Origin: a virus
Reading direction: 5' to 3' (one strand)
IMG/VR virus record: IMGVR_UViG_3300019458_000017
Span: 1-40,326 of that record
Length of the DNA: 40,326 nt
Shown here one piece after another: positions 186-40,326 of this stretch (within the stretch, counting starts at the first letter, position 1; every line of letters starts with the position of its first letter). The notes under the pieces are model-generated. The model searched no databases and was not told the origin of the DNA. It saw only the letters and a program-made list of their open reading frames with translations. The translations under genes and the position numbers were made by a program.

Positions 186-206
186 GCGCCCAAGGCGCGG
201 AAAGGA
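186..206 (+). promoter_or_regulatory. Conserved stem-loop + Shine-Dalgarno cassette, copy 1
   Basis: GCGCC-CAA-GGCGC directly followed by GGAAAGGA; ATG at 211. Confidence 0.7.
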
Positions 207-210
207 ACAC

Positions 211-441
211 ATGAAGACCGATCGAACAGTCACCCGTGATTTCCTGAACCGCCAGAATCTCCCGGTCGAGGATTCCCACCGATATGCCGTTTCGTGGCTG
301 TCGGCCGACCGACAGGCCGAGATGTGGATGGGGCTGGGCTCCACGACCGAGGAGGCTCTTGCCGATGCCATGCGAGAGGCAGTCCAGAGTGAGCTCGCCG
401 GGACCGAGTGTTATTTTGTCACGTGGAAAATCGTAGACTGA
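211..441 (+). CDS. Small early protein (76 aa), HicB/UPF0150-like GxGxTxEEA motif (tentative)
   Basis: ATG lies 4 nt after GGAAAGGA. WMGLGSTTEEALADAMRE and the C-terminal TWKIVD are paralogous to WIGYGDSEEEAIQDARRW and VWQIVD in the 2045..2644 product. Confidence 0.7.
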   Translation: MKTDRTVTRDFLNRQNLPVEDSHRYAVSWLSADRQAEMWMGLGSTTEEALADAMREAVQSELAGTECYFVTWKIVD

Positions 442-449
442 CCCACTGG

Positions 450-470
450 GCGCCCAAGGCGCGGAAAGGA
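450..470 (+). promoter_or_regulatory. Conserved stem-loop + Shine-Dalgarno cassette, copy 2
   Basis: GCGCC-CAA-GGCGC-GGAAAGGA; ATG at 478. Preceded by GACTGACCCACT (436-447), which is shared with copy 4. Confidence 0.7.
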
Positions 471-477
471 AGGAATA

Positions 478-765
478 ATGAAACCCAGTGAAGCTCTTCT
501 GATCGGAGCGGCTATGAGGCCGCAGTGTCGTGGAGAGTATTTCAAGGAAGAGAACGGCGTCCTTTGCTCCTGCGCGATCGGGGCGATGGCGGAGGGAGCC
601 GGGCTGACTCCGCCTATTCGAGGGCATGGCGAAATCTCCGACTTTTTTGACGCCACATGGCCCGAGATAAGTGACGGCCTCTGGAAAGAGATCGTCGAGC
701 TCAATGACAATGACAAGATGTCGCGCGAAGATATCGCGCATCATCTGGCCGCGAAGGGCCTGTAG
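478..765 (+). CDS. Small early protein (95 aa), unknown function
   Basis: ORF track entry with the cassette and SD upstream. The ...CSCAIGAMAEGAG...ELNDNDKMSREDIAHHL pattern resembles small phage proteins of unknown function. Confidence 0.75.
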   Translation: MKPSEALLIGAAMRPQCRGEYFKEENGVLCSCAIGAMAEGAGLTPPIRGHGEISDFFDATWPEISDGLWKEIVELNDNDKMSREDIAHHLAAKGL

Positions 766-766
766 A

Positions 767-788
767 GCGCCCTCGGGCGCGGAAAGGA
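767..788 (+). promoter_or_regulatory. Conserved stem-loop + Shine-Dalgarno cassette, copy 3
   Basis: GCGCC-CTCG-GGCGC-GGAAAGGA (loop one nt longer, palindrome preserved); ATG at 795. Confidence 0.7.
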
Positions 789-794
789 TCGACA

Positions 795-1259
795 ATGGGA
801 ACAGACATCGACATCGCCGGACTCGTACGAGACGGAATCCTCGACCTCGCTGAGGTCTTCTGCCCGGACGACTGGGGCAGGGACGCAGACGCCATCGCGT
901 CATACGCCGACCGGTGTGGGGGGCCGGATGGCATCTCCCCCGTACAGGTCAAGGTATTCCTTGAGGTCGCAACCGCATACGGGATCACGGCCTACCGCTA
1001 CTGCGCGACCGACGATGACTGGGCCGCCTCCTGGTGCGGCCCGGCCATGCTCGATAGCGGCGCGGCCATAGCGGCCGGAGAGGAGTATGCCAGCGAGCAC
1101 GATGACCCGGAGACCGAGGAGGAGACGATGGCCCGAGAGGCAGCAGCCGAAGAGGAGGAGGAGGAAGAGCGGCGGCGGGACGACGAATACCGCGACCGCC
1201 AGGCCGCAGACGAGGCCAGGCAGCTGGATTCTTCGGACCACGAGAAAGGATCGACCTGA
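795..1259 (+). CDS. Acidic early protein (154 aa)
   Basis: ORF track entry. The C-terminal third is dominated by Glu/Asp (...AAEEEEEEERRRDDEYRD...). Its stop overlaps the next start (TGATG at 1257-1261). Confidence 0.75.
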   Translation: MGTDIDIAGLVRDGILDLAEVFCPDDWGRDADAIASYADRCGGPDGISPVQVKVFLEVATAYGITAYRYCATDDDWAASWCGPAMLDSGAAIAAGEEYASEHDDPETEEETMAREAAAEEEEEEERRRDDEYRDRQAADEARQLDSSDHEKGST

Positions 1260-1579
1260 TGGACGCTTATCTTTTCAAGACAGACCTTTATTGCGCAAAC
1301 TGCGGCGAGATGCTCCGGAGGGATATCACGGCGCTCGGAGGGGCACCGCCGGAGCCGGCGGATGAGTCCACCTACGGCTCCGACGTTTACCCCAAGGGAC
1401 CGCGCGCGAATGGCTGGGGGGTAGCCCATTGTCCGCAGCATTGTCACATGTGCGGGATCTTTCTACAAAATCCCATCACAGACGAGGGACGCGAGTACGT
1501 CCGCCAATGCGTCGAAAATGTGTGGGACTATTCACGCGAAATCGTGGAGACGTGGATCGCGTTCTATCGCATTGACTGA
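1259..1579 (+). CDS. Cys-rich zinc-ribbon-like small protein (106 aa), paralog of 39154..39381
   Basis: Contains CANCG ... HCPQHCHMCG. Shares the N-terminus MDAY(L/V)FK..LYCA and a 26-nt identical initiation block with 39139-39164. Confidence 0.8.
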   Translation: MDAYLFKTDLYCANCGEMLRRDITALGGAPPEPADESTYGSDVYPKGPRANGWGVAHCPQHCHMCGIFLQNPITDEGREYVRQCVENVWDYSREIVETWIAFYRID

Positions 1580-1588
1580 CCCACTAGT

Positions 1589-1609
1589 GCGCCCACGGCG
1601 CGGAAAGGA
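1589..1609 (+). promoter_or_regulatory. Conserved stem-loop + Shine-Dalgarno cassette, copy 4
   Basis: GCGCC-CAC-GGCGC-GGAAAGGA; ATG at 1615. Preceded by GACTGACCCACT (1574-1585). Confidence 0.7.
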
Positions 1610-2048: not shown

Positions 2049-2644
2049 TCTGCGGCACGATGACACGCGCGCAGGCGGATAAAAAGGGCATGCGCCCAGG
2101 GCGCTATGAATTCGCTGTTTTTCGCGCCAGAGACTACAGAGATTCTGTTCCGGGCGACTGGACCTTTCCGTGCGGCTGGATCGGCTATGGAGACAGCGAA
2201 GAGGAGGCCATACAAGATGCGCGCCGCTGGTGCGCGGAGCATGGGGTGGATTTCACCCTACAGTGGGCTCGGGTCTGGCAGATCGTGGACGAGGAGCCGA
2301 AGGTGGCTGTCCAGATACCATCCAGCGAAGAGCAGAAGGGCCAACTCGCGGCGGCGCTTCTGGCCGCCGGAGAGAAGTTGTTCGGCGCCATCGAAGAAAT
2401 CGACCACGTGCGCAGGGCCATCATCGCCGGCGCCGAAAAAGGCAATTCGAGCGATCGCGTCAGATACGCTGCCGCGAATCTCGCCCGCGGGCTAGCGGGC
2501 GGACTCGGAGAGGGAGCCGCTAGAATTCGACAGGCAACCTACAGCCTCACCGACCTGGGTCGCATCCTGCTCGCATTGGAAAAGACACAGTCCGAAGCCT
2601 TGCTTGGCCGCATGCTGGCTGAACCGGAGGCTGATGCGCCATGA
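2045..2644 (+). CDS. Early protein (199 aa); N-terminal domain paralogous to the 211..441 product
   Basis: ORF track entry with an ATGA overlap upstream. An alternative start is ATG 2090 (MRPGRYEF...). A GCGCCC-A-GGGCGC palindrome sits at 2092-2104. Confidence 0.75.
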   Translation: MICGTMTRAQADKKGMRPGRYEFAVFRARDYRDSVPGDWTFPCGWIGYGDSEEEAIQDARRWCAEHGVDFTLQWARVWQIVDEEPKVAVQIPSSEEQKGQLAAALLAAGEKLFGAIEEIDHVRRAIIAGAEKGNSSDRVRYAAANLARGLAGGLGEGAARIRQATYSLTDLGRILLALEKTQSEALLGRMLAEPEADAP

Positions 2645-2826: not shown

Positions 2827-2853
2827 ACGATTCTTTCTTTCCACTTTTCTCTA

Positions 2854-2885
2854 GGCCGGGGGATTCCTCCCCCCGGCCTTTTTTT
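2854..2885 (+). terminator. Rho-independent terminator
   Basis: GGCCGGGGG (2854-2862) pairs with CCCCCGGCC (2870-2878) around a 7-nt loop, then T7 (2879-2885). Confidence 0.8.
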
Positions 2886-2900
2886 GCCCAAGGAGTACCT

Positions 2901-3062: not shown

Positions 3063-3364
3063 GCGATCCAGCGAATCTGCCGCCGGACCTGCCGGAAGAT
3101 CCCCCAAACGGACGCCTTCTCCGCGCATTGCAATCCGCCCATGATCTCTACGAGCTAGGATGGAAGGCGAATGCGATGCGGATCCGGATCCAGGATGCCT
3201 GCTACAGTGACGACTCGTATGATCCCAGCAACACACCGTGGTCTCGACATCTGACCGCCGTGTTCTGCCGCGAAGTTATTGATGGCATAGCAAAGATCAA
3301 GCATGGGGCCAAGGGCTTGATATCGTTGGCGGGCATCGTCGGAGGGAGGATGATTTCATCGTGA
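3059..3364 (+). CDS. Hypothetical protein (101 aa)
   Basis: ORF track entry with an ATGA overlap to the upstream stop and GGGAGGG upstream. Confidence 0.7.
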   Translation: MSDPANLPPDLPEDPPNGRLLRALQSAHDLYELGWKANAMRIRIQDACYSDDSYDPSNTPWSRHLTAVFCREVIDGIAKIKHGAKGLISLAGIVGGRMISS

Positions 3365-3494
3365 GGCTCTTCGGGGCTCGTCCGGCGACGAGCCTATGAG
3401 GAGAGAAATGAGGAGATGAAGAAAAGCAGCCGCCGGGTCGCCTCGCGCGTGCATCCTGACCTCGCCGGCCGGCGGCGCTTTAGGAGAATCTGAG

Positions 3495-3779
3495 ATGGCA
3501 ACCGATCTAATACTCGCGCTCGACGCCTCGGAGGCGCTCGAGTTCCTCGCCGATGAGGCTAAGCGCATCCGGCGAGCCGTCGAGGACGCGGCCACCGGAT
3601 CATCGTTCGCTGCTGATTCCGCGTGGATCCGTTGCGATGCTTGGGTGGCGGCGCAAGGGCTTAGGGAGGCGGAAGAAATCATTGACTTTGCCTGCCGGCG
3701 ATTCAGGGCGATAAGGAAAAAAATCGGGACAGAGAAGGTGGTGCATGATGGACTCGGAACACGAGAGGGCCCGGCATGA
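3495..3779 (+). CDS. Hypothetical protein (94 aa)
   Basis: ORF track entry with AGGAGA 7 nt upstream. Confidence 0.65.
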   Translation: MATDLILALDASEALEFLADEAKRIRRAVEDAATGSSFAADSAWIRCDAWVAAQGLREAEEIIDFACRRFRAIRKKIGTEKVVHDGLGTREGPA

Positions 3780-3909
3780 AGGGCTTCAGGGTGGACAGGG
3801 GCGCACCGCGGAAGATGTCTGGCGCGATGGCTGGATCGGGTGCGCGATTCTCTTGGGATTCATAGGGGGGGTCTTTGTCGGCGCGACTCTCTTCTTCGCG
3901 ACGCAGTAA
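3745..3909 (+). CDS. Small membrane protein (54 aa: MMDSEHERARHEGLQGGQGRTAEDVWRDGWIGCAILLGFIGGVFVGATLFFATQ)
   Basis: Hand-translated; below the ORF-track cutoff. Has a clear C-terminal transmembrane helix and overlaps the upstream ORF by 35 nt. Confidence 0.45.
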   Translation: MMDSEHERARHEGLQGGQGRTAEDVWRDGWIGCAILLGFIGGVFVGATLFFATQ

Positions 3910-3930: not shown

Positions 3931-3990
3931 GGGCTCGGGATGGGAGAAGATCGGCCGCTTGTGCGGTCGCATCGTCCCGAGCCCGCTTTT
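3931..3990 (+). terminator. Long imperfect hairpin + short T tract (probable terminator)
   Basis: GGGCTCGGGA (3931-3940) pairs with TCCCGAGCCC (3975-3984), followed by GCTTTT. Confidence 0.5.
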
Positions 3991-3993
3991 AAG

Positions 3994-4022
3994 TTGAAAC
4001 CCATCGCCAAAACCGATAGGAT
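3994..4022 (+). promoter_or_regulatory. Sigma70-like promoter candidate
   Basis: TTGAAA (3994-3999), 17-nt spacer, TAGGAT (4017-4022). It lies between two terminator-like hairpins. Confidence 0.4.
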
Positions 4023-4151: not shown

Positions 4152-5123
4152 GTGGCCAAGAAGATCTTGAACGGACCAGAGAGCGCATCGAGGCCCTGGA
4201 TGCCGTTCTACGCGGCAAAATGGATCTCCGATCCGGGCGTCAGAGCGATGACCCTCTCCGCCCAAGGGATCTACATCAACATGATCGCGGCCTGCTGGAT
4301 TCACCGAGAAATCCCGGGCGACCCTAGGTTGAGCAACCCCTCAGCAACCCTCGAGCAGTACCTCAGCAACACCTTCGCAGTGCAGCCGCAACACCTTCGC
4401 AACGCATGGGCAACCCTTCGGCAACACTTCCGCAGCACATCTCCGGGTTTCATGGTAAACACCTTAGTTGATAAGATCTTACAAGAGTTTGACGACCCTA
4501 ACTTTTCGACAGAGAAGAGAAGAGAAGATGAGAGAAGAGAAGATGATGATGATGCTCCGAGCGATGCGAAGATCGCTTCGGAGCCGATCCCTCCGGAGCC
4601 TCCGGTTTCTGTTCCAGAGGAACTTAAAAACCTTTCGCTTTACGCCGCCGATCCGAAACTCTGCCGCAGATTTCCCGATCTGCTGCCATCCTGGCGAACC
4701 GCGTTTCCCGGAATCGTTCTCCTCGACGAGATCGCCAAGGCGCACGCCTGGGAAGTCGCGAATCCGAGCCGGCGAAAGCGTGATCGAGCGCGATTCCTAA
4801 ACACTTGGCTCAACAAAGCTCAGGACGCGCCCCGGATCGGATCAGCGACCCCTTCAATCAACCTCGAAGCCGAGCAACGCCGAAAGGCCGAAATCGCTCG
4901 AAAACGAAAAGAGAACGAACCTAGGCCGATTTCAGAGTTAGCTTGGCATGACGGAATCAAAGGCCTTAAAAACTCGCTCCGCGGGGCCGCCACGCCTATT
5001 TCGGCCCCCGGATCGACTCCAGGGACCTTAAACCGGTCCGCGGGGCATGGCGAGGCAGACAGCGGCCTTCCCAGCCGTGTGTCAAAATCGCAACAAAATC
5101 AACTTGGCCCGGAAAAAGTGTGA
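4152..5123 (+). CDS. DUF1376 (YdaU-like) domain protein, putative replication initiation/primosome-associated
   Basis: The N-terminus ...RPWMPFYAAKWISDPGVRAMTLSAQGIYINMIAACW matches the DUF1376 pattern. The start is proposed at in-frame GTG 4152, 8 nt after GGAGGAG. The track ORF starts at TTG 4023 and ATG 4050 is also possible. Confidence 0.65.
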   Translation: MAKKILNGPESASRPWMPFYAAKWISDPGVRAMTLSAQGIYINMIAACWIHREIPGDPRLSNPSATLEQYLSNTFAVQPQHLRNAWATLRQHFRSTSPGFMVNTLVDKILQEFDDPNFSTEKRREDERREDDDDAPSDAKIASEPIPPEPPVSVPEELKNLSLYAADPKLCRRFPDLLPSWRTAFPGIVLLDEIAKAHAWEVANPSRRKRDRARFLNTWLNKAQDAPRIGSATPSINLEAEQRRKAEIARKRKENEPRPISELAWHDGIKGLKNSLRGAATPISAPGSTPGTLNRSAGHGEADSGLPSRVSKSQQNQLGPEKV

Positions 5124-5959
5124 CCAAAATGCCACAACCAAACTACAGACCTCAACTTCCAGGCGTCTTCAGAATCACCCACTCAGACCTGGAGACCTAC
5201 CTCGAATGTGGGCTTCGCTGGCTCCTCAAAAAAGAGCTGAAGCACCGCCGATCCACCGTGGCGCAGATGATCGGCACCGGAATCGCCGGCGCGCAAAAGG
5301 CCGACCTTCAAGTTAAGCACGACACCGGAATCGGCCTGCGCCTCGGCCAAATCGTGGATGCGGGCGTAGCGGCCTATGAAGCCGAGCGATCTGAATGCGA
5401 GGTGGAGGCGCCGAAGATCCAGATCGCGAACGGAAAGGATGAAACAGCGGCCGCGGCAAGCTGCTACGGAACCGAAGTCTCACCACTCTACGACAAGATC
5501 AATGCCGTGGAGAAACAGATTGTAGGCCTTTTTACTATGGACCTCAGCCCCTCGGAAACGACTACGTTTGAGGTGGCAGGCACGCCCGATGTGATGACGC
5601 CGAACGGCATCGGAGACACCAAGACCGGGCAACCGTGGACGCAAGAGAGGGCCGATCGAACGCGGCAACTGACGATGTATGGATGGCTCTTCCGTGTCGC
5701 CGAGGAGAAATGGCCGGCCGAGTTGTGGATTGATTCACTGTCGCGGACAAAGGCCGGATGGCGTCACGAGCGACTCTATACCACCCGCGAAATAGAGGAT
5801 TATGTGGCCGCCGGCAAGGCGATTGCGGCGGCCAAAAAAGGAATTGAAGCCGAAGTCTATTTGCCGGCGCCGAGCAGTTCGTGGCGATGCTCGGCCAAAT
5901 GGTGTGAGTTCTACGGAAAGGGTTGCCCGGCGGTGTCCGGGCGGGAAAGGAAATTATGA
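5120..5959 (+). CDS. Cas4/RecB-like PD-(D/E)xK exonuclease with Cys cluster
   Basis: Motifs are GTPDV, IGDTKTG and QLTMYGW. An N-terminal Cys (YLECGLRW) plus the C-terminal CSAKWCEFYGKGC is typical of four-Cys Cas4/AddB-type nucleases. ATGA overlap upstream. Confidence 0.65.
   Translation: MTKMPQPNYRPQLPGVFRITHSDLETYLECGLRWLLKKELKHRRSTVAQMIGTGIAGAQKADLQVKHDTGIGLRLGQIVDAGVAAYEAERSECEVEAPKIQIANGKDETAAAASCYGTEVSPLYDKINAVEKQIVGLFTMDLSPSETTTFEVAGTPDVMTPNGIGDTKTGQPWTQERADRTRQLTMYGWLFRVAEEKWPAELWIDSLSRTKAGWRHERLYTTREIEDYVAAGKAIAAAKKGIEAEVYLPAPSSSWRCSAKWCEFYGKGCPAVSGRERKL
5925..5951 (+). promoter_or_regulatory. Stem-loop + SD of the same architecture, different stem sequence
   Basis: GCCCGG (5925-5930) pairs with CCGGGC (5937-5942), followed by GGGAAAGGA; ATG at 5956. 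It lies inside the 3' end of the nuclease gene. Confidence 0.5.
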
Positions 5960-7080: not shown

Positions 7081-9236
7081 ATCCGATTCGCATTGTCAGC
7101 CTCCTCGGCTTCAAAGGCCTCGACCGCCAGTACTCGATAGAGGGCCCCACCCTCCTCCGCGGCCCCAACGGCGCCGGCAAGTCGGCATGTCTAGAGGGCA
7201 TCGTCTATGCGCTCTCGGGCAGAGTGCCGAGCGGCAAGAAGCTCGAAGTGGTCGCCGGCTATCTGCCAGTCCTCAACGGCGGCCTGGCCGGGGTCGAACT
7301 GAGCGATTCCGCCGGCGCGAAGATCTTTCGCGGCATCACTCAAGACCGAAAGGGCAAGCTGTCCGAGACGATCGACTGCTCGGACCTCTCTGCATGGGAA
7401 TCGTCCGAGGTTGTCCTCGACGTGCGGGAGTTTCTTTCTCGTTCTCCCGAGAAGCGGCGCGAGTTTGTTCTAGCCCTGGTTGGCGGCGGCGAGGCTGGGC
7501 CGAACCTCATCGCCACGATAGAGGCGCATTACGCCAAGGAGATCGCCGGCCAGGCGGCCACCGCGGCATCGCTGCGTCAGCCCCAGGACCTCGGAGACGC
7601 CGGCGTTCTCGCGGCTGCGTGGACGGCGCCCCGGGGCCTCCGCGAGGTCATCGAAGCCACCTTGGCCGGTGCCCGCGGGAAGAGCCTCTCGGAAGCCTGC
7701 TCCGCGCTCATGGAGGCGGCGAAGCAAGGCAAGCTGATCGCGCGTAAACGCGCTCAGGATGCCGAGGCCGCAGCCGATGAGGCCGCAACGAAGATACGCG
7801 GCAAAGATGGCGCCGGCGTAGAGGCCGAGAATGTGAAGCTCGGCATCGAGTCCGTCGAGGAGCTTCTGGCCGATGCGAGGCTAGTCATTGCGCTCCATCA
7901 GGAGCGCCGAGCGGCGCTTCAGGCCGCGATCGATCGCCTCGATTCCGCTACTCGTGCCCGGGAGGAGGCGAAGCAGGACCTCGCGCAAATCCGACAGCCG
8001 GGATACAAGCCGATGGAGCCCGAGCGGCCGGACCCCAAAGAGCACGAAAAGAAGATCAAGGAATTGGATGTCGAATATCGGAGGATCCAGAAGCTGGAGG
8101 AGGAAGCGGCGAATCTGGTTTCCGACAGGGACAATGCCGCGAAAGGATTCGCTCGAAGCCGCGCGAGCTTAGAAGAGCACTCGAAGGTCCCGATCTCCAT
8201 CCTGGTCAAGGAGATGGCGCTCGTCCCGGATCACGCACATTCCAATGTCCCGGCCCTGCGGGCCGCCGTGGCCGAGGTGTCTGCCGGCTGGAAGATGGGG
8301 CTTGAAGCCAGAGAGGGGGTTTTTCTGAAGTACGAGAGGGATTGCGCGGATGCGGAAGCCCTCTACAGTGACTTTTGCGATGAGAATGGCTCGCTCGAGC
8401 AGATCAAGGGGCTCAAGGAGAAGATCTCCGAAAATGCCAAGAAGGCCGGGGACGAACATCGCGCTGTGGAGGATGCCTACATGGCCGAGTTCAAGGCGTA
8501 CCAGGAGACGCGCAATAAATGGGAGAAGCAAGAGGACGCGCATGCGAAAGCGGCCATGCGGCACATCTCCGCTGACGCGGCGGTTGGCGAGGCGAAAAGG
8601 GGCTGCGAAGAAGCTAAGAAGGCGGTCGATGAGACGCCGGCTCCTGACTACGACATCGCCACGCTGGAGGCCAGGGCCGCGAGCTTGAGGGGCGAATATG
8701 AGACGCTGCATGCGGCCGCGCAGGCGGTAGCACGCCATGCCGAGCTGGAGTCTCAAGCCGAGAATCTGCGGGATGTCGAGGAGGCGTGGAAAGCGGCCGA
8801 GAAAGCCATCGCCGCTGTACGAGAGACGCAGATCGGCTCATCCACGGAAGGATTGCTGGTCGACCTCGCGGACATCCTGAAGCGTGCCGGCCGCGAGGAG
8901 AGTCCGTATCTGACGCTCGAGAACGCCCGCGGCGTGCCCATCTTTGAGATGGGCTGGGTCGCGGAAAACAAGAAGGTGCCGCTCGGCAGCCTTTCGAGCG
9001 GAGAGGCGGTCTTGTTCGCGGCGGCGTTGTCCGTCGCCATCACGCGCAGGAGCCAGGGCCGAAAAGTCCTGCTTGTCGAGGCCGACCCGCTCGATACGAC
9101 CAACATCGAGGCGCTGCTCGGCGCTCTTCTGCGGGTCGGCGGCGAGCTGGATGCGCTGCTGGTCGCGACCGCTTCGGAGGGGTTTGTTGTCCCAGCCGGC
9201 TGGCATCAGATCAAGCTGCCGGAGGTGTTTGCCTAA
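7077..9236 (+). CDS. SMC/Rad50/RecN-like ABC ATPase (719 aa)
   Basis: Has an N-terminal Walker A (GPNGAGKS), a long coiled-coil middle, and a C-terminal LSSGE signature with VLLVEAD. No CxxC zinc hook seen. Confidence 0.7.
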   Translation: MNPIRIVSLLGFKGLDRQYSIEGPTLLRGPNGAGKSACLEGIVYALSGRVPSGKKLEVVAGYLPVLNGGLAGVELSDSAGAKIFRGITQDRKGKLSETIDCSDLSAWESSEVVLDVREFLSRSPEKRREFVLALVGGGEAGPNLIATIEAHYAKEIAGQAATAASLRQPQDLGDAGVLAAAWTAPRGLREVIEATLAGARGKSLSEACSALMEAAKQGKLIARKRAQDAEAAADEAATKIRGKDGAGVEAENVKLGIESVEELLADARLVIALHQERRAALQAAIDRLDSATRAREEAKQDLAQIRQPGYKPMEPERPDPKEHEKKIKELDVEYRRIQKLEEEAANLVSDRDNAAKGFARSRASLEEHSKVPISILVKEMALVPDHAHSNVPALRAAVAEVSAGWKMGLEAREGVFLKYERDCADAEALYSDFCDENGSLEQIKGLKEKISENAKKAGDEHRAVEDAYMAEFKAYQETRNKWEKQEDAHAKAAMRHISADAAVGEAKRGCEEAKKAVDETPAPDYDIATLEARAASLRGEYETLHAAAQAVARHAELESQAENLRDVEEAWKAAEKAIAAVRETQIGSSTEGLLVDLADILKRAGREESPYLTLENARGVPIFEMGWVAENKKVPLGSLSSGEAVLFAAALSVAITRRSQGRKVLLVEADPLDTTNIEALLGALLRVGGELDALLVATASEGFVVPAGWHQIKLPEVFA

Positions 9237-9691: not shown

Positions 9692-10323
9692 AACAGTCCG
9701 ATTGGGACAGGAGCGAGACAACTATCATCCGCCGGCGATTCGGATCGGACTTTCCGGCCGTGACCTCTTCCACGTCCAAGCTGCGCGGAAAAGCCTGCGC
9801 GGTTTGCGCGCGCGATGTCAGCGTGCCCGATCCGAATCGAGCCTCTTTCCGGGACGGCAAGCCCTATCCATGGGCCTTGCTCGACCGAGGCGGGCTCATG
9901 TTTTGCTCCATCAGGTGCTGGAGGGGCCATCCGAAGGATCCGGCGAAAAGCCCGCTCAAGAAACTGATCGACAAGCGTAAGACCGAGGCGCAGATCCAGG
10001 AGGAATGCTGCACCGTCCTGGACACGTCTCCCTGCGCCCTCGTCTACTCCATCACCGACGCCAGCCGGTCATTCGGCAAGGACGGCAAGCCGCGGAAGTC
10101 GAAGGTGCGGAAGGACTGGCCGGATATCACGATGTTAATGGGCTGGCCCTGCCCAGGCATTTCACCCGGGAGGTTCGTGGGCATCGAGGTCAAGCGGCCC
10201 GGTGAGAAGCAGACCGAGGGCCAGAGGAAGATCCAGCTCGAAATCGAGTCCTGTCACGGCATCTACTGGCTGGTCCATTCCGCCGAGGAACTGAAGGAAA
10301 AACTAGAGAGGGGTGTTCTGTGA
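9688..10323 (+). CDS. FCS/TRASH-like zinc finger fused to a VRR-NUC nuclease domain
   Basis: The N-terminal half has CAVC ... MFCSIRC. The C-terminal half has EAQIQEECCTVL ... WPDI ... GIEVKRPGEKQTEGQRKIQ ... WLVHSAEEL, matching the VRR-NUC D...ExK...Q pattern. Confidence 0.6.
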   Translation: MKQSDWDRSETTIIRRRFGSDFPAVTSSTSKLRGKACAVCARDVSVPDPNRASFRDGKPYPWALLDRGGLMFCSIRCWRGHPKDPAKSPLKKLIDKRKTEAQIQEECCTVLDTSPCALVYSITDASRSFGKDGKPRKSKVRKDWPDITMLMGWPCPGISPGRFVGIEVKRPGEKQTEGQRKIQLEIESCHGIYWLVHSAEELKEKLERGVL

Positions 10324-10817
10324 GGCACCTCGAGCGGACGCAGAGGAGGCTTCTCTTTTGGCTCGCAGATAATCCCAAAACCGTCTGGGATCTCTGTGAG
10401 GAGCTGATGGGGAAACCAAGTGCCACCGAGGGAGACCGGAGCATCATGCGCGCGAGGCTGCGGAGGCTACAGACGCGCGGACTGGTCTCTTTCACCTTTG
10501 TTGACGATAAATTCCGGAAGTCCAAGTCGTGGAGCATAACTGAATCCGGGAAGGCGGAACTGTTCGCATGTTCGAGGAAGTACGAGAAAATGCTGACCCA
10601 ATCGCAACTCCTCCGCTCACTGCTCACACCCTCAGACGTCCAAGATCTGCTCGAGCGACACGGGATTTCTCCGCGGCTTGCACGGGAAGCTCTCATGAAA
10701 CTGGAACGTCGTGGATTGGTGGAAGCAAAGCCCGTGAACAATTCAATGACTTGGCTTTTGACAGACAAGGGCCGAGCGAAATTGATTGCTGAATTCGCTC
10801 GGAATGCGGCGATATGA
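10320..10817 (+). CDS. Winged-helix (MarR-like) DNA-binding protein, two wHTH-like halves (tentative)
   Basis: GTG start with a GTGA overlap. The pattern ...RLRRLQTRGLV.. / ..LMKLERRGLVEAK.. recurs in the two halves. Confidence 0.45.
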   Translation: MRHLERTQRRLLFWLADNPKTVWDLCEELMGKPSATEGDRSIMRARLRRLQTRGLVSFTFVDDKFRKSKSWSITESGKAELFACSRKYEKMLTQSQLLRSLLTPSDVQDLLERHGISPRLAREALMKLERRGLVEAKPVNNSMTWLLTDKGRAKLIAEFARNAAI

Positions 10818-11240: not shown

Positions 11241-11507
11241 ATGAATCAAGCCGAGATCCGCGAGCTGGGAAAATGCGTGTGGTGCAAAACGGAACTCTGC
11301 AAGGGCGATTATCCGACATTCTACATGATCGAATTTAACAGGTACGCTCGGCATTCTCCCCGATTGCTCGCATCGCCGGAGCAAGATATCACAGGGATCC
11401 TGGGCGATGCGTTGAGGCTGGGCCTGTGCGACGATTGCGGCGAGAAAATCAGACCCTTGATAGTTAGCTTCTTTGCCAGAAAACCAGAGCCGAAGGAGGG
11501 TGCATGA
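11241..11507 (+). CDS. Zinc-ribbon-like small protein (88 aa)
   Basis: GGAGG lies 7 nt upstream. Contains CVWC ... CDDC. It is the 3' part of track ORF 11004..11507. Confidence 0.65.
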   Translation: MNQAEIRELGKCVWCKTELCKGDYPTFYMIEFNRYARHSPRLLASPEQDITGILGDALRLGLCDDCGEKIRPLIVSFFARKPEPKEGA

Positions 11508-11674
11508 ATACCAGGAGGCGCCACGGGCGCAGGATTATCAGCGATGTCTGCCACTGCTACGACTGCGGGTTCCCATGTTGGAAGCCGGAATGGGTGATGG
11601 AAGTGCCCCTCTGCGTCGAGTGCGCCGACAAGAGGATGGCGAAGAGGCGACAACGGGCCGGGAGGCAAGCATGA
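11504..11674 (+). CDS. Cys-rich micro-protein (56 aa: MNTRRRHGRRIISDVCHCYDCGFPCWKPEWVMEVPLCVECADKRMAKRRQRAGRQA)
   Basis: Hand-translated; below the track cutoff. ATGA overlaps at both ends (11504-11507, 11671-11674) with AAGGAGG upstream. Confidence 0.55.
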   Translation: MNTRRRHGRRIISDVCHCYDCGFPCWKPEWVMEVPLCVECADKRMAKRRQRAGRQA

Positions 11675-11922: not shown

Positions 11923-12035
11923 GTGCTGAGGTCGAGATCGTGTCGGCCATGGAGGCGGCGCAGAGGTTCATCGACGCCTGCCAGGTTGGCCATACTTCAG
12001 GAAAACCAGTGGGCGAAAGCCCAGAAAGGAAATGA
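11919..12035 (+). CDS. Possible micro-ORF (38 aa, GTG start)
   Basis: GTGA overlap at 11919-11922, but it contains the 12010-12030 hairpin-SD element. Weak support. Confidence 0.25.
   Translation: MSAEVEIVSAMEAAQRFIDACQVGHTSGKPVGESPERK
12010..12030 (+). promoter_or_regulatory. Stem-loop (GAAA tetraloop) + SD of the same architecture
   Basis: TGGGC-GAAA-GCCCA followed by GAAAGGA; ATG at 12039. Confidence 0.5.
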
Positions 12036-17044: not shown

Positions 17045-18016
17045 TCATCCTCCGAGTCCGAATCCGCCGAAACTTGACGCGGAGTCCCCGATTCCGCCGA
17101 TGCCTCGGCCAAGTGATGATGCGATGGCAATTTTCTCCGCGCGCTTTCTCTCTTCCAGGCCGGCCCGTTGGCTCAATGCGTCGGTTAGCCCGCGCGTCTT
17201 CGCGAGCCGCTGATTGAAGCCGGTGTTCAAGAGTTCGTTCTTCCGATTCAGATTCTCCAACGCGGTCTCGTACCGCGCGATCGCGTTGGCTTCTCCGACT
17301 CTCTGGCGGGTGCCGATGTTGTAGCCCTGAGCGCGCTCCCGGGCCCCCGCTCCATACTGCGCCGCGCCGGTCTTGAGTTGAGAGGCAAGCTCATTGAAGC
17401 GATTCATCGCGGCCGCATTTTTGGCCGCAACGTCTATGTCGGCTCCGCGGATTCTGCTGCCAAGCCCAGAGGCGGCCTCTGCTCCTGTGACGCGGTTTGC
17501 GATCCGCATGGCCGACGTGTCGCGCGCCATTCGCGCGGCCAAGTCCTGCGCGCCCTGATTGGCGCCCAGGCGAGCCGAGATCTCATCGCCGATGGACAAT
17601 CGGCCACGGGATGCCAGGTCTCTGAGAACGTCCTCCTGCGCGGAACGATACTCGCGGCCGAGCGCGCCTTGAACGTCTTCGGTAGCGAGCCGATCGGCGA
17701 GCGGGAGACCCTCTTCGGCGATTCGCTCGAAACGGGACAACCCGCGCAATTCCGCCTCGCGGCCACCCGGCGCGACCTGAAGCATCTCCGGCTGCCCAAC
17801 GATGACGGCCTGATATTGCTCCGGGAACGCCTGGGCTAAGATCTCTCTTTCCGGAGCCGAGAGCGCCGACATATCGAAGTTGGACTCTTCCAGCTTCCGC
17901 CAGATGTTGACTGCCTCGCGGAGGTACTTCGTGCCGCCTCCTCCGGCCATGAGCAGTCCTATTCCGGCTCCGATCCCGCCGCCTAGGTTTGCAAATCCGC
18001 CGCCTCCTTCTGCCAT
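17045..18016 (-). CDS. Virion protein with Gly-rich termini (323 aa)
   Basis: ORF track entry with the termini MAEGGGGFANLGGGIGAGIG... and ...SSFGGFGLGG. Lies within the run of large late proteins. Confidence 0.65.
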   Translation of the reverse strand: MAEGGGGFANLGGGIGAGIGLLMAGGGGTKYLREAVNIWRKLEESNFDMSALSAPEREILAQAFPEQYQAVIVGQPEMLQVAPGGREAELRGLSRFERIAEEGLPLADRLATEDVQGALGREYRSAQEDVLRDLASRGRLSIGDEISARLGANQGAQDLAARMARDTSAMRIANRVTGAEAASGLGSRIRGADIDVAAKNAAAMNRFNELASQLKTGAAQYGAGARERAQGYNIGTRQRVGEANAIARYETALENLNRKNELLNTGFNQRLAKTRGLTDALSQRAGLEERKRAEKIAIASSLGRGIGGIGDSASSFGGFGLGG

Positions 18017-37614: not shown

Positions 37615-38291
37615 GGCTCTGCGCTCTCCTTCGCGTTCACTGGCGCGCGGCATCTCGACGGCCGACAAGCGCCGTCGGGTCCGTCCGCGCCGTCGAAGTC
37701 ATCGTCAGTCGGCATCTCCGATGGGCAGTCCGATGGGCCGGAAACTTCCTTCCGGAAACTTTTTTCCGAGGGGGGTCCATTTTGGGGGTCGGCCGAAAAG
37801 CGCGGGCCTAGCACGATGTCGGGATCCAGATGCGGGGGCAGCCTACCCTCCGCTCGGGCGCGGTCGACCTTCTCCCGGAGGAACTCGGTCAGGGACGCCA
37901 TCCGGGCCCGGAGGTGGTCCACGAAACGGTCCTCTGTATCGGCCGGCTCCTGGACCGCAGCCGCCGGGTCCGACACGCGCTTCGGGTCCTCCGGGTTCAC
38001 TTTTTGCGGCAAAGATGGCGCCTCGAATCGCTCGGCGAGACCAGCCAGAGGGTCCGATAAAATTCCGGCCGCTCGATCCCCAGGCGCCTGCTGGCGAACC
38101 CCCACCTGTACCACCCCCCGCTCCAGGTCCAGGATGGTCAGAGTCGCCTCTCCGAGCCGCTCGATCGGCACCCCACAACGCCGAAAAATCGCCCGCACCA
38201 CCCCGTCCCGACTCGCCTCAGCCGCCCGAATCTCGCGCATAACTGCTTTCAGGCCTTCACGTTGCGCGTCGTCCAGAACGACAAAATTCAT
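37611..38291 (-). CDS. First gene of the leftward arm (226 aa), unknown function
   Basis: ORF track entry with GAGGAA 4 nt upstream of the ATG. Acidic, Pro-rich C-terminal half. Confidence 0.6.
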   Translation of the reverse strand: MNFVVLDDAQREGLKAVMREIRAAEASRDGVVRAIFRRCGVPIERLGEATLTILDLERGVVQVGVRQQAPGDRAAGILSDPLAGLAERFEAPSLPQKVNPEDPKRVSDPAAAVQEPADTEDRFVDHLRARMASLTEFLREKVDRARAEGRLPPHLDPDIVLGPRFSADPQNGPPSEKSFRKEVSGPSDCPSEMPTDDDFDGADGPDGACRPSRCRAPVNAKESAEP

Positions 38292-38377
38292 CGATTCCTC
38301 AGCCTTTCTGGCCGTTTGAGCGGCCTAGCAAAGCGTTCCATTTTCGGAACACACTTGAATCAGATTTCGAATTTCCG

Positions 38378-38496
38378 TGCTTCATTTTGAAGCATCCCGA
38401 GTCGTAAATTTTACGAGTGCGTTGATTCCATTGAGTTTACGTCATCGATTCGTTCCGCCGGCGAGCCTGAATAAGCGGCGAATCGTGCAAATTGCA
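38378..38496. promoter_or_regulatory. AT-rich island with three short palindromes (candidate operators, promoter region or origin)
   Basis: The palindromes are TGCTTCA-TTT-TGAAGCA (38378-38394), CGTAAA-T-TTTACG (38403-38415) and TGCAA-A-TTGCA (38486-38496). This is the most AT-rich stretch noticed in the window. Confidence 0.4.
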
Positions 38497-38544
38497 AGGT
38501 TTCTTTGAAATCATTGAAGTTACGACTTTGTGGCACGCGTTTTT

Positions 38545-38570
38545 GGGGGGAGACAGGGGGGGTGGGGGGG
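38545..38570 (+). other. G-tract cluster 1 (G6-AGACA-G7-T-G7), G-quadruplex-capable
   Basis: Read directly: GGGGGGAGACAGGGGGGGTGGGGGGG. Confidence 0.6.
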
Positions 38571-38600
38571 CTAGGCTCGGCGCCCTCAGTCCGAAACCCC

Positions 38601-38623
38601 TGGACAGCCTGGACAGGGTGGAC
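38601..38623 (+). repeat. 9-bp-phased iterons TGGACAG-CC-TGGACAG-GG-TGGAC
   Basis: Read directly. Lies between the two G-tract clusters. Confidence 0.6.
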
Positions 38624-38650
38624 CTCACGGCGCGGGTACTTTTCGACAGC

Positions 38651-38669
38651 GGGGGGTGGGGGTGGTGGG
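38651..38669 (+). other. G-tract cluster 2 (canonical G4 motif GGGGGGTGGGGGTGGTGGG)
   Basis: Read directly; contains four or more G-runs separated by single T residues. Confidence 0.6.
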
Positions 38670-38757
38670 TGCCCGGCGCATTTTGCCGCATCCTCCGGGC
38701 AAGCTCTTTGCCGCATAAAGTTCGGTATTTGTTCGGGTGGTTCCTCCGGCCGTGTCT

Positions 38758-39090
38758 CTACCGCCGGCGGCGCGACTTTGCAAGCTCTCGGGGCAAAAAT
38801 CTTTTGCGATTTCCCGGATTTCTCTTGCGCTTCTCGCGTTTCTCGCTATACTTCACGGCATGGATGGGACGTGTGCCGTGATTCTTCCCCCCCCCTCTCC
38901 GCTCTCGGATGTCGAGTCGGACGCCGGCGAGTCGGCCGGCGTCGAAGAGCTCGAGAAGCCTCAAGAGCGCAAGGTCGAGCACCTTGGTCTTGGGCAAATC
39001 CAAGGCGAGCGACAGTCGGTTCTGCGCGGCGAGGGCTTCGGCGGAGAGCCAGTAGCTACGGGGGCCCGGGCGGAGATGTGTGCGGTTCAT
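38758..39090 (-). CDS. Ribbon-helix-helix-like candidate regulator (110 aa), uncertain
   Basis: The internal ATG 39090 of track ORF 38758..39312 gives MNRTHLRPGPRSYWLSAEALAAQNRLSLALDLPKTKVLDLALLRLLELFD.., a strand-helix-turn-helix pattern, followed by a basic tail. It is fully antisense to the + frame 38860..39153, and composition does not decide between the two. Confidence 0.3.
   Translation of the reverse strand: MNRTHLRPGPRSYWLSAEALAAQNRLSLALDLPKTKVLDLALLRLLELFDAGRLAGVRLDIRERRGGGKNHGTRPIHAVKYSEKREKRKRNPGNRKRFLPRELAKSRRRR
38825..38852 (+). promoter_or_regulatory. Rightward sigma70-like promoter candidate (early arm)
   Basis: TTGCGC (38825-38830), 16-nt spacer, TATACT (38847-38852). An ATG lies 7 nt downstream (38860). 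Confidence 0.45.
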
Positions 39091-39097
39091 GGCGCCC

Positions 39098-39125
39098 ACC
39101 ATAGCGAGAAAAGTCACGAATGCCA
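39098..39125 (-). promoter_or_regulatory. Leftward promoter candidate, inverted relative of 38825..38852
   Basis: The minus strand reads TGGCAT, 16-nt spacer, TATGGT, 7 nt, ATG (39090). It shares the 11-nt TTTCTCGCTAT with the rightward promoter (38839-38849 versus the complement of 39101-39111). Confidence 0.4.
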
Positions 39126-39145
39126 GCATGGGCTGGTGGAAAGGA
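39123..39145 (+). promoter_or_regulatory. Stem-loop + SD of the same architecture, different stem sequence
   Basis: CCAGC-ATGG-GCTGG, then T, then GGAAAGGA; ATG at 39154. Confidence 0.5.
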
Positions 39146-39153
39146 TCGACCTG

Positions 39154-39381
39154 ATGGACGCTTACGTTTTTAAAGGGAATCTCTACTGCGCGCACCACGC
39201 CGGCATCATCCGTGATGACATCGAGAGGCGGGGAGGTGCCCCCGACTGCCCAGAAGATTTGTCCGATTTCGACGCGGACGAGTACCCGCTGCCCGCGGTT
39301 TCGCGTGCTCACGATAATCGGCCACGATTTTGCGTTGCGTGCGGGACCTTTATCGGCTTCCTCGGCATGGTGCGGACATGA
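39154..39381 (+). CDS. Small protein (75 aa), diverged paralog of 1259..1579
   Basis: The sequence MDAYVFKGNLYCAHH...FCVACG and the 26 nt spanning SD and start are identical to 1244-1269. It is the 3' part of track ORF 38737..39381. Confidence 0.7.
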   Translation: MDAYVFKGNLYCAHHAGIIRDDIERRGGAPDCPEDLSDFDADEYPLPAVSRAHDNRPRFCVACGTFIGFLGMVRT

Positions 39382-39632
39382 GGCGTAGTGGCATGCAGTC
39401 CACCTTTTTCATCCGTGTGCCGGCCGGGCAGTACGAGTTCCAGCAAACCGAGCGGACCGGACCGGGATGGGAAGCGCCGCGTATCGTCACTCAGATCCGC
39501 CATCCCGAGTACGCCCCACGCTGGCGGATCGTCTATCGCACCAGCACCGATCGCGGGTGGTATCTCCGGGATCCCCAGTCCGGGCGGCTCGGCACTACCC
39601 AGTCGGCCACTTGTGTCGTTTTTGAAGACTGA
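39378..39632 (+). CDS. Small protein (84 aa)
   Basis: ATG 39378 in an ATGA overlap. ATG 39393 is an alternative start. Confidence 0.6.
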   Translation: MRRSGMQSTFFIRVPAGQYEFQQTERTGPGWEAPRIVTQIRHPEYAPRWRIVYRTSTDRGWYLRDPQSGRLGTTQSATCVVFED

Positions 39633-39649
39633 ACTGAAAGGAACCCAAC

Positions 39650-40326
39650 ATGCTGATCCCCAAAAATCTCCTCAATGTCGCCCGCATCGCCGATGACGAT
39701 TTCGGGACGCGGAAAAAGCTTGGTGGCGTGCACCTGAAGACCATCGATGGCGCGCCCGCTATGCGGGCCAGGATCGAAGCCACCGATGGCAAGATCCTGA
39801 TCCGCTCTGAGTTCTCGCCGTGGTCAGAGTCGGAGTTCCCCGTGCCGCCCGGAGAAACGCCGGCTCCGGCCGATGCGCCGGAAGCCCCCATCGATGTCAT
39901 CATCCCCGCCGAAGCGGCCGTGATCGCCCAGGGGCTCCCCCCGAAAGCGACAAAGCACGGGAAGGAAATCCTGCAAGAGGTGCGCGTGCGAGCGAACGGT
40001 GAGGGCACCGTGCATTTCATGGCCACCGATCTCGGCGGATTCCGCTCTCATAGCGAGCGGGCGATCGATGGCACCTTCGTCAAGATGGATGCCGCACTGG
40101 ACTACACCGGCAAAACGGATCCGATTGCGTTCAATCTCGTGCGATTGAAGGAGCTCATCGATGCGCTCCTGAAGGTCCATCCGCCGGGGACTGATAAGGG
40201 AAACGAGCGGAATGGGCACCCGCTCCGGCTCGCCTCTCTCGGTTTCGGGACCGGCGGAACCCTGCACGTCGTCGTCACCGATGGGACGACGCAGACGCAC
40301 GCGGTCGCCATGCCGATGCGGGCGAC
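39650..40326 (+). CDS. Short DnaN (beta sliding clamp)-like protein; 226 aa when joined across the junction to base 127
   Basis: Hand-translated; it runs off the window end, so it is absent from the ORF track. GAAAGGA lies 7 nt upstream. The motifs ATDGKILIR, ERAIDGTFVKMDAAL (compare clamp IDGxFPDY) and the C-terminal ...VAMPMR are typical of beta clamps. Confidence 0.6.
   Translation, partial: MLIPKNLLNVARIADDDFGTRKKLGGVHLKTIDGAPAMRARIEATDGKILIRSEFSPWSESEFPVPPGETPAPADAPEAPIDVIIPAEAAVIAQGLPPKATKHGKEILQEVRVRANGEGTVHFMATDLGGFRSHSERAIDGTFVKMDAALDYTGKTDPIAFNLVRLKELIDALLKVHPPGTDKGNERNGHPLRLASLGFGTGGTLHVVVTDGTTQTHAVAMPMRA
40204..40326. repeat. Terminal direct repeat, right copy (exact match to 1..123)
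   Basis: Compared base by base. Confidence 0.95.

Follow-up and report, generated by a model that had tools for sequence, protein, structure and literature searches.

The closest described systems to the element reported here are the start-associated sequences (SAS) and their extended forms (ESAS) of the Cluster K mycobacteriophages, in which an asymmetric repeat containing a Shine-Dalgarno sequence (SD) lies just before the starts of a subset of genes of the non-structural arm, in the direction of transcription (PMC3203893; PMC12699233). An inverted repeat whose spacer varies precedes about half of these repeats, some stop codons fall inside the repeat, and a role in translation has been suspected, although the function was still unexplained in 2025, over a decade on (PMC3203893; PMC12699233). 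In the IMG/VR virus record IMGVR_UViG_3300019458_000017, which was analysed over its whole stretch of 40,326 nucleotides (the window), we noted four copies of a cassette of the form GCGCC-N3/4-GGCGC-GGAAAGGA, a GC palindrome fused to an extended SD, with the ATGs of the small early genes g211, g478, g795 and g1615 beginning 4–7 nt further on. The SAS and ESAS are the closest known kind to this cassette, which represents the same concept in miniature without being a member by sequence or dimensions. As in the SAS and ESAS, a repeat containing the ribosome-binding site (RBS) lies near starts (4–8 nt here as against 3–8 nt in the SAS), in the non-structural arm and in one orientation. In contrast, the 13-bp SAS consensus GGGATAGGAGCCC, with up to 2 mismatches, has a single match (with 2 mismatches), which lies at minus-strand position 17965 and is not start-associated, against 1.46 expected; the ESAS have imperfect 17-bp repeats with a 4–13 bp spacer, whereas the stems here are of 5 bp (at most 8 with G.U pairs) with a 3–6 nt spacer; and there are 4 copies rather than the 11–19 of the SAS. 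Furthermore, conservation in relatives is documented for the ESAS, whereas no relatives carry the present cassette, the genome being podovirus-like and unrelated. The element is thus a genuine but modest variant, private to its lineage, within the known class of start-associated repeats.

Sequence inspection placed the four cassettes, all on the plus strand, exactly where the original prediction had located them. Copy 1 (186–206) consists of GCGCC-CAA-GGCGC at 186–198 and the SD GGAAAGGA at 199–206, followed after a gap of 4 nt by the ATG (211) of g211, which encodes 76 aa. Copy 2 (436–470) begins with GACTGACCCACT at 436–447, containing the g211 stop codon TGA (439–441), and continues with GCGCC-CAA-GGCGC (450–462), the SD (463–470) and, after 7 nt, the ATG (478) of g478 (95 aa). 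In copy 3 (767–788) the palindrome GCGCC-CTCG-GGCGC (767–780) begins 1 nt past the g478 stop codon TAG (763–765) and is preserved around a longer, 4-nt loop, as had been noticed, with the SD at 781–788 and the ATG (795) of g795 (154 aa) 6 nt beyond it. Copy 4 (1574–1609) again carries GACTGACCCACT (1574–1585), which here contains the g1259 stop codon TGA (1577–1579), then GCGCC-CAC-GGCGC (1589–1601), whose stem extends to 1588–1602 via a U.G pair, the SD (1602–1609) and, after 5 nt, the ATG (1615) of g1615. The match between copies 2 and 4 spans 37 nt, including GACTGACCCACT over the preceding stop codon, which bears out the earlier observation that conservation crosses the gene end. The description of the four genes as consecutive does not strictly hold, since g1259, which has an SD and no hairpin, intervenes between g795 and g1615.

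A covariance model (CM) built from the four copies scores them at 30–37 bits (36.9 for copy 1 and 30.5 for copy 3, with folding energies of -7.1 and -10.0 kcal/mol respectively) and the rest of the window at no more than 14.6 bits; a MAFFT alignment cannot register the unrelated stems of the three further sites described below. Searches of the window with the 21-mer, allowing up to 3 mismatches, gave 5 matches against 0.27 expected, a number reached in 0 of 100 shuffles, and there are 8 occurrences of the SD GGAAAGGA where 1.9 are expected, each of them on the plus, sense strand of the early arm and 4–8 nt before an ATG. The differences between copies are confined to the loop, including the change from 3 to 4 nt that preserves the palindrome, and 3–4 changes would all fall within 3 of 21 positions by chance with a probability of about 3e-3 to 4e-4. 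The genes g211, g478, g795 and g1615 are mutually unrelated ORFans, not paralogs, and similarity between the loci stops sharply after 22–37 nt. The cassette observation is therefore genuine.

The same layout recurs with unrelated stems at three other plus-strand sites, at 5925, 12010 and 39123, as the original prediction had stated. At 5923–5951, within the 3' end of the nuclease gene g5120, (UU)GCCCGG-CGGUGU-CCGGGC(GG) with a folding energy of -12.7 kcal/mol and a pair probability of 0.83 is joined to GGAAAGGA before the ATG (5956) of g5956. At 12010–12030, UGGGC-GAAA-GCCCA (pair probability 0.96) adjoins GAAAGGA before the ATG (12039) of g12039, and at 39120–39145, (U)GCCAGC-AUGG-GCUGG(UG) adjoins GGAAAGGA before the ATG (39154) of g39154, the first early gene. 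At the last of these sites, the SD and spacer correspond in part to the start region of g1259, of which they are a paralogous copy. Two junctions on the same strand provide hairpin-less controls: GAGAAAGGATCGACCTG at 1243–1258 before g1259 (ATG 1259), whose SD and spacer are identical to those of copy 3 and of the 39138 site, and the canonical stop-SD junction GACTGAAC-TGAAAGGAACCCAAC at 39627–39649 before g39650, which equals copies 2 and 4 minus a hairpin insert of about 20 nt. The canonical junction without a hairpin can also be written GACTGAAC-TGAAAGGAA and, before g39650, GACTGAAC-TGAAAGGAACCC.

To quantify the coupling we counted hairpins of at least 5 bp with at least 4 G-C pairs and a loop of 3–7 nt that end 0–2 nt upstream of an SD. 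The plus strand has 13 GAAAGGA sites, 11 of which are ribosome-binding sites with a start codon 4–8 nt downstream; a hairpin adjoins the SD in 7 of these 11, against about 0.5 expected from the 1.6% of genome positions that are 3' ends of such hairpins, and in 0 of the 2 sites that are not ribosome-binding sites. With the four homologous copies counted as one, 4 of 8 sites have a hairpin (p~3e-4). The gap between stem and SD is constant at 0–2 nt, whereas stop codon and stem are separated by anything from -35 to +60 nt, and an upstream cistron is altogether absent from the 39120 site. Given this fixed gap and variable stop distance, the hairpin functionally belongs to the downstream start and not to the end of the upstream gene. 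The anatomy of the copies, the enrichment, the lock between hairpin and SD, the restriction of variation to the loop and the lack of promoter or terminator features at the cassettes (see below) can all be read directly from the sequence.

The palindrome could in principle act as DNA or as RNA. As a DNA operator comparable to the stoperators of mycobacteriophages, the 13-bp palindrome would be bound by the winged-helix regulator g10320, or by the product of a possible ribbon-helix-helix-like (RHH-like) open reading frame (ORF) at 39090–38803, and would block early transcription or modulate it. The perfect palindrome, its over-representation in bare form and the presence of an encoded winged helix-turn-helix regulator fit this proposal, and repressor-bound intergenic repeats in Cluster A mycobacteriophages are mentioned in PMC3203893. 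However, the stoperators are asymmetric 13-bp repressor sites of temperate phages, whereas the present site is symmetric, its half-site spacing shifts from 3 to 4 bp in copy 3, and no integrase or CI-type repressor was detected in the window, which also gave no tRNA. A change of spacing is harmless to an RNA loop and awkward for a dimeric DNA-binding protein. Moreover, the stems at 1588, 5923 and 39120 gain additional length from G.U pairs, which can form only in RNA of the sense strand; these extensions, like the sense-only fusion to the SD, are not explained by a DNA operator. The sites also lie 13–25 nt before start codons, distant from any promoter, and the divergent control region, which separates the late arm from the early one, has no related palindromes, its own repeats being unrelated to the cassette. 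The change in loop length, the G.U extensions and the unrelated control-region repeats together favor a sense-strand RNA hairpin, and we regard a DNA operator as very unlikely for the family as a whole. For the 39120 site, which lies inside a 63-bp divergent control region, a DNA-operator role is possible.

We infer that RNA rather than DNA is the active form, that it affects translation or stability and that it has spread by recombination. Specifically, at a probability of roughly 0.45, we propose that the cassettes are cis-acting sense-strand RNA start modules of hairpin plus SD, which serve as RBS insulators or decay barriers and have been spread by recombination. Such a module would occupy 21–37 nt in the polycistronic mRNA of the first early operon, its 5-bp all-GC stem with a 3–4 nt loop being joined through a 1-nt gap to the extended SD GGAAAGGA, with the AUG 4–7 nt on. 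The SD would recruit the 30S subunit by pairing with 7–8 nt of a 16S tail of the CCUCCUUUCU-3' type, as the dominance of this SD in the lineage suggests, while the hairpin directly 5' of it would bracket the SD, insulate it from the sequence and traffic of the upstream cistron and form a local barrier to mRNA decay. The outcome would be a strong, context-independent start for each small ORFan, and the unit would have been copied between unrelated genes by recombination, being inserted into the canonical stop-SD junction, and not by gene duplication. In a library study of stem-loops placed before the SD, a 10–12-nt stem, a 4-nt loop and an SD of about 8 nt were found to maximise transcript abundance (PMC12743556), and 5' hairpins and strong SDs figure as mRNA stabilisers in the reference list of PMC3997798. 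The cassettes resemble such stabilisers (the ompA and papA hairpins, STAB-SD and polypurine elements, going by the references in PMC3997798) and the synthetic hairpin-SD 5' untranslated regions in having a stable hairpin directly 5' of an extended SD, with a geometry that matches the optimum of PMC12743556; raised transcript abundance and reliable initiation would be the effects to expect. In contrast to the stabilisers, which lie at the 5' end of the transcript, the cassettes are internal to a polycistron. Hence a stabiliser role would need cleavage upstream of them, or action against the 3'-5' decay of the upstream cistron.

Several points weigh against this proposal. When a hairpin was sought 11–17 nt before any start, a less post-hoc criterion, it was present at 9 of 26 early starts against 3 of 26 late ones (Fisher p=0.049), or at 6 of 23 early starts with the family collapsed (p=0.04), which makes the test only moderate; the hairpin enrichment is real, but it is strong only in connection with the GAAAGGA type of SD. 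In relatives, adjacency of hairpin and SD is weak (about 4 of 27), no relative carries the cassette family, and neither conservation nor covariation of the family could be shown, for want of close relatives in the databases. Regional folding energies are ordinary (z from +0.75 to -1.6), z-scores being uninformative at 61% GC. The predicted in-context pairing is high (0.83–0.97) at 5 of the 7 sites and low in copies 1 (0.06) and 3 (0.18). The evidence for the hairpins is consequently positional and comparative, and not thermodynamic. When the stems were disrupted in silico, the mean cost of opening the SD-AUG region was 5.0 kcal/mol as against 4.0 kcal/mol with the stem intact, opening being easier with the intact stem at 5 of 7 sites; this effect is small and reversed at the other 2. 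Finally, the stems of the four family copies are identical in sequence, which a purely structural role does not require, and two additional bare palindromes without an SD hint at sequence-specific recognition. These are GCGCC-CAG-GGCGC at 2092–2104 (plus strand), in the 5' part of g2045, and GCGCC-ACG-GGCGC at 11518–11530 (plus strand), which lacks a GAAAGGA SD and lies 18 nt past a GTG start at 11500. We also noted an N4 version of the GCGCC/GGCGC palindrome at 7904–7917, near the 5' end of an early-arm coding region and again without a GAAAGGA SD.

The identical stems and extra bare palindromes keep a sequence-specific binder of the hairpin as a live rival. The original prediction had suggested that selection acts on an RNA hairpin and not on one protein-binding sequence; its positive half is supported by the enrichment of SD-abutting hairpins (7/11, or 4/8 when collapsed) and with the unrelated stems, whereas its dismissal of a binder went too far. 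Phage translational operators offer several models: the T4 gene 43 hairpin, bound by gp43, is adjacent to the SD, RegA of T4 is a single regulator of several early mRNAs, and Com of phage Mu acts at the mom hairpin, the coat proteins of RNA phages being a further case. The cassettes resemble the gene 43, RegA and Com operators in having a hairpin next to the RBS, but differ in sequence and size, and no homologous regulator was detected. By this account the hairpin and SD would be bound by a phage or host RNA-binding regulator that switches a small early regulon, with the products of g1615, g1259 and g39154 as candidates. It would explain why the stem sequence itself is identical in the four copies while the other hairpin-SD stems are unrelated, and why the bare GCGCC-N3-GGCGC palindrome has 5 copies genome-wide against 0.4 expected, both extras being in the 5' parts of early-arm genes. 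The candidates also have suggestive features: g1615 (104 aa) is Arg-rich, with 18 R+K, and is itself preceded by copy 4, and g1259 and g39154 have CxxC motifs with a faint zinc-ribbon signal. However, none of them matches any RNA-binding family, the identity of the copies is equally explicable by recent copying, the loop is the sole variable part though it is usually a key determinant for hairpin-binding proteins, and the other three hairpin-SD sites would be left unexplained. We therefore hold such an operator to be possible but doubtful. Much the same standing may be given to two more specific conjectures, namely that a minimal operator read by a small phage protein (for example g1615 or the zinc-ribbon paralogs) times the early ORFans, or that the stem stacks coaxially on the 8-bp SD:anti-SD helix at the 16S 3' terminus, forming a cis-acting initiation enhancer not described before; a search of the literature for a hairpin stacked coaxially on an SD helix found no publication combining these elements. 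If either were true, the phage would offer a tractable model for the unexplained SAS and ESAS repeats.

The transcriptional context of the cassettes bears on the remaining proposals for the hairpin. All four, together with the 39120 site, lie within the first early transcription unit, and the unit holding the four copies is closed by an intrinsic terminator at 2853–2886 (plus strand), AGGCCGGGGG-ATTCCTC-CCCCCGGCCT followed by seven T, with a 10-bp stem of which 9 pairs are G-C. This terminator follows g2641 and is itself followed by AAGGAG and the ATG of g2901. A terminator scan found none at the cassettes, where the stems are followed by GGAAAGGA and not by a U-tract; since a canonical U-tract terminator is used elsewhere in the genome, the U-less cassette hairpins are not terminators of that kind. 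No sigma-70-like promoter was found in 1–2600 or 38200–40326, and the conserved block is GC-rich without a -10-like hexamer. In the whole window Rfam gave no match at gathering score, and in 1–2200 only a chance-level match (E=0.76). Beside copy 1, and 20 nt before it, a GC hairpin (CCCGG...) followed by UUU lies at 151–167, just past the g39650 stop codon; it could be a weak attenuator that divides the first three genes from the cassette-bearing ones.

These observations also separate the cassettes from the three systems to which the original prediction had likened them. The promoter-early stem-loop (PeSL) elements of T4-type phages are defined by a strong promoter, sigma-70-like and with an AT-rich UP region, and have a stem-loop that serves as terminator or attenuator (PMC2839356; PMC4122927). 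The cassettes share with them a short repeated GC-rich stem-loop that ends in the SD and start of small early ORFans, but they have no promoter-like sequence, U-tract or visible terminator function, and so are not PeSL elements. With regard to antitermination, the cassette has a 5-bp GC stem like that of boxB, and nut sites comprise a boxA, a pentaloop and binding of the Arg-rich N protein, once per operon. Here the loops are CAA, CAA, CUCG and CAC, of 3–4 nt and not GNRA-like pentaloops; neither CGCTCTT[AT] nor GCTCTTTA occurs anywhere in the window, TGCTCTT being confined to the late arm; there is no N homolog; and four copies lie in one operon, more than antitermination needs, so that boxB membership fails as well. 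Near-identical copies are also typical of promoters of phage RNA polymerases (RNAPs), and a 5-bp stem with a 3-nt loop recalls the early promoter hairpins of phage N4 (5–7 bp stem, 3-nt loop), so that phage-RNAP promoters giving near-leaderless mRNAs might be envisaged. However, no RNAP was found among the window proteins by Pfam, PHROGs or PDB sequence searches, the early ORFs are all too small to encode a T7-type enzyme, and a start about 11 nt past the loop centre would land inside the SD. We regard these transcriptional proposals, whether nut-type or promoter-type, as the least probable of all.

It is scarcely more probable that the hairpins are processing sites at which RNase III or RNase E cuts the early polycistron into monocistronic mRNAs, as in T7. 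The position between cistrons of an early operon fits such sites, and cleavage that leaves a hairpin at the resulting 5' or 3' end would be expected to stabilise the product, a general notion to which titles in the reference list of PMC3997798 also relate. The stems are of 5–8 bp with folding energies of -7 to -13 kcal/mol, which is far below the two or so helical turns that RNase III needs and excludes membership in its substrate class. In T7 the RNase III sites of the early transcripts are long, irregular duplexes of about 20 bp or more, just upstream of ribosome-binding sites. Furthermore, the flanks of the cassettes are GC- or purine-rich and lack the adjacent AU-rich single-stranded motifs of RNase E, and there is no cistron ahead of the 39120 site from which it could be separated.

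Comparisons among the junctions bear on how the copies arose. The motif GACTGA[AC]C occurs 3 times in the genome, always at an early stop-SD junction, and in 2 of these (copies 2 and 4) a hairpin segment of about 20 nt is inserted. The genes g39154 (75 aa, 39154–39381) and g1259 (106 aa, 1259–1579) are paralogs with 42% identity (E 1e-13), and they keep an identical 26-nt block of SD, spacer and start, GAAAGGATCGACCTGATGGACGCTTA, despite the divergence of the remainder of the genes; copy 3 shares its SD and spacer GGAAAGGATCGAC with this block. The most economical account, judging from these alignments, would be that initiation cassettes were copied among unrelated early genes by recombination and that this phage gained a hairpin-bearing version. 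By extension, the cassettes could mediate modular shuffling in the manner of PeSL elements. One may go further and suppose that they are primarily promoter-less, PeSL-like recombination junctions, short DNA homologies for insertion, deletion or shuffling of ORFans with a secondary effect on expression. In keeping with this, sharply bounded repeats flank unrelated early-arm ORFans, mosaic types exist (in copy 3 the GCGCC stem occurs together with TCGAC, the spacer found at g1259 and g39154), a PD-(D/E)XK exonuclease, a phrog_3657 protein and an SbcC-like ATPase are among the phage's gene products, and recombination at PeSL elements has been documented (PMC2839356). Nevertheless, 21 nt is a very short homology, no second, differing genome shows indels at the cassettes, neither relatives nor 243 motif-bearing loci contain early-gene homologs or a unit of cassette plus ORFan, and the lock between hairpin and SD at the sites with unrelated stems would remain unexplained. 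A primary role in recombination is accordingly unlikely.

Comparisons with other genomes yielded little, as close relatives are lacking. No relatives at the DNA level were found among 50,697 phage records, and a second contig (L004) is 100% identical to the window and adds no information. The large terminase (TerL) has eight database relatives only, at 40–50% identity, and a sole cultured relative at 24%. In the loci anchored on these terminases (L005, L007–L010 and L251–L255), the early arms are unrelated and contain no early-gene homologs, and the four-copy CM found no credible copy, the best match (in L254) lying within a coding sequence. Of the genes behind the hairpins, g478 is an ORFan in homology searches and g5956 has relatives of less than 47% identity. 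The exact motif was encountered in IMG/VR, metagenomes and GTDB as scattered single copies in unrelated taxa, at about the chance level, with no multi-copy contig among the matches listed. An ORF start follows 52% of these copies as against 14% of random positions, a difference which may reflect the SD half alone, there being no non-palindromic control.

That the exact 21-mer is found singly in hundreds of unrelated genomes, together with the ordinary folding energies, could be taken to mean that the cassettes have no function and are chance palindromes beside a common SD, or neutral duplication remnants. Against this stand the 5 matches where 0.27 are expected in one genome, the clustering of the copies in one operon, the limitation of variation to the loop, and the contrast between the cassettes, which are about 100% identical, and the paralogs g39154 and g1259, whose identity has fallen to 42%; we consider absence of function highly improbable.

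One junction offers a positive comparative hint for the combination of hairpin and SD. In L010 and L254, whose nucleases are 60% identical, the nuclease gene is followed by the arrangement stop-TAG-A-(6-bp GC hairpin)-N-SD, with a single compensatory pair distinguishing the two stems. The nuclease of the window has no homology to that of L010 and L254, and 58 IMG/VR junctions from a wider sample of the latter nuclease family proved to belong to another phage group, with a different stem-loop that does not abut an SD. A conserved stem-loop of about 12 bp lying some 25–65 nt past the stop codon of a DUF2800-type nuclease gene characterises a phage group of about 52% GC (L263, L264, L266, L267, L269 and about 30 other IMG/VR loci). 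Its arms, for example GACCTGACAGCG-CGTTAA-CACTGCCAGGTC, vary in an apparently compensatory manner, with no U-tract or abutting SD after them, and it may represent a structured RNA that has escaped annotation, or else a terminator of atypical form.

The relatives have the same grammar of stop-SD junctions, and in each of them a "house" RBS cassette of its own recurs ahead of several early genes that are unrelated. In L007 and L010 this is CTAACC-GAAAGGAA-CCC-ATG, that is, CTAACCGAAAGGAACCC(A)ATG, at 3980–3997, 4865–4882 and 7571–7588 of L010 and at about 7490 of L007, all on the minus strand, and in L005 it is GAGGAGGTGCGGTCATGAC at 368–386, 832–850 and 2498–2516 (minus strand). In this phage group, to judge from these loci, the repeated use of initiation cassettes seems habitual. 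The edge of the L005 locus (17–376) also carries at least 16 tandem 15-nt repeats, in a gene for a pentapeptide-repeat protein. In L254, about 450 nt of non-coding sequence between two early genes (approximately 3340–3790, minus strand) are dense in the iteron-like repeats GTCGAGTC, GTCGCGTC and GGGTCG, and form a candidate replication origin.

The cassette represents an independent and far smaller start-associated repeat in an unrelated lineage, with a 5-bp stem, a 3–4 nt loop and an 8-nt SD. The genome supplies natural internal controls, in that one SD is found beside the family hairpin, beside hairpins unrelated to it and without any, so that the question of structure versus sequence is easily posed. 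If the hairpin boosts or gates initiation, it would provide those who design operons for high-GC hosts with a small part of natural origin, and would aid gene callers in fixing the starts of small ORFans; if it has no measurable effect, the family would show the spread of short RBS cassettes by recombination in phage early regions.

The window has a GC content of about 61%, and its first 123 nt (1–123) are repeated exactly as its last 123 nt (40204–40326), indicating a complete genome, circular or terminally redundant, with a unique length of 40,203 bp. The gene g39650 (226 aa) spans the 40204–40326/1–123 junction. The plus-strand arm runs from about 39.15 kb over the junction to about 13.0 kb, with small ORFans first and then recombination and replication genes, including those for the PD-(D/E)XK nuclease, the phrog_3657 protein, the SbcC-like ATPase, an endonuclease and a tandem winged-helix regulator. 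The minus strand encodes the packaging and structural proteins between 13.2 and 38.3 kb, including the large terminase and portal, and weak SU10-adaptor and P22-portal signals in relatives suggest that the virion is probably podovirus-like. The sole recognisable transcription regulator on the early arm is g10320 (10320–10817), a MarR/PadR/GntR-like DNA-binding protein with tandem winged helices. The C-terminal half of g211 (211–441) resembles residues 45–82 of g2045 (2045–2644), with 37% identity over 38 aa (E 8e-5), pointing to a small domain common to early ORFans. Diverging from the early operon is the minus-strand ORF 39090–38803 (96 aa), whose N-terminus (RSYWLSAEALAAQNRLSLALDLPKTKVLDLALLRLLE) looks RHH-like by eye, with no support for such a fold from Pfam, PHROG or PDB searches; the plus-strand ORF with which it overlaps is extended by some gene callers into g39154. 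Within the divergent control region that separates the late arm from the early one, long G-rich tracts lie at 38545–38575 (GGGGGGAGACAGGGGGGGTGGGGGGG) and 38643–38670 (GGGGGGTGGGGGTGGTGGG), and a direct repeat, TTTGCCGCAT, is present twice, at 38682 and 38707; these tracts and repeats are possible regulatory or G-quadruplex-prone sequences.

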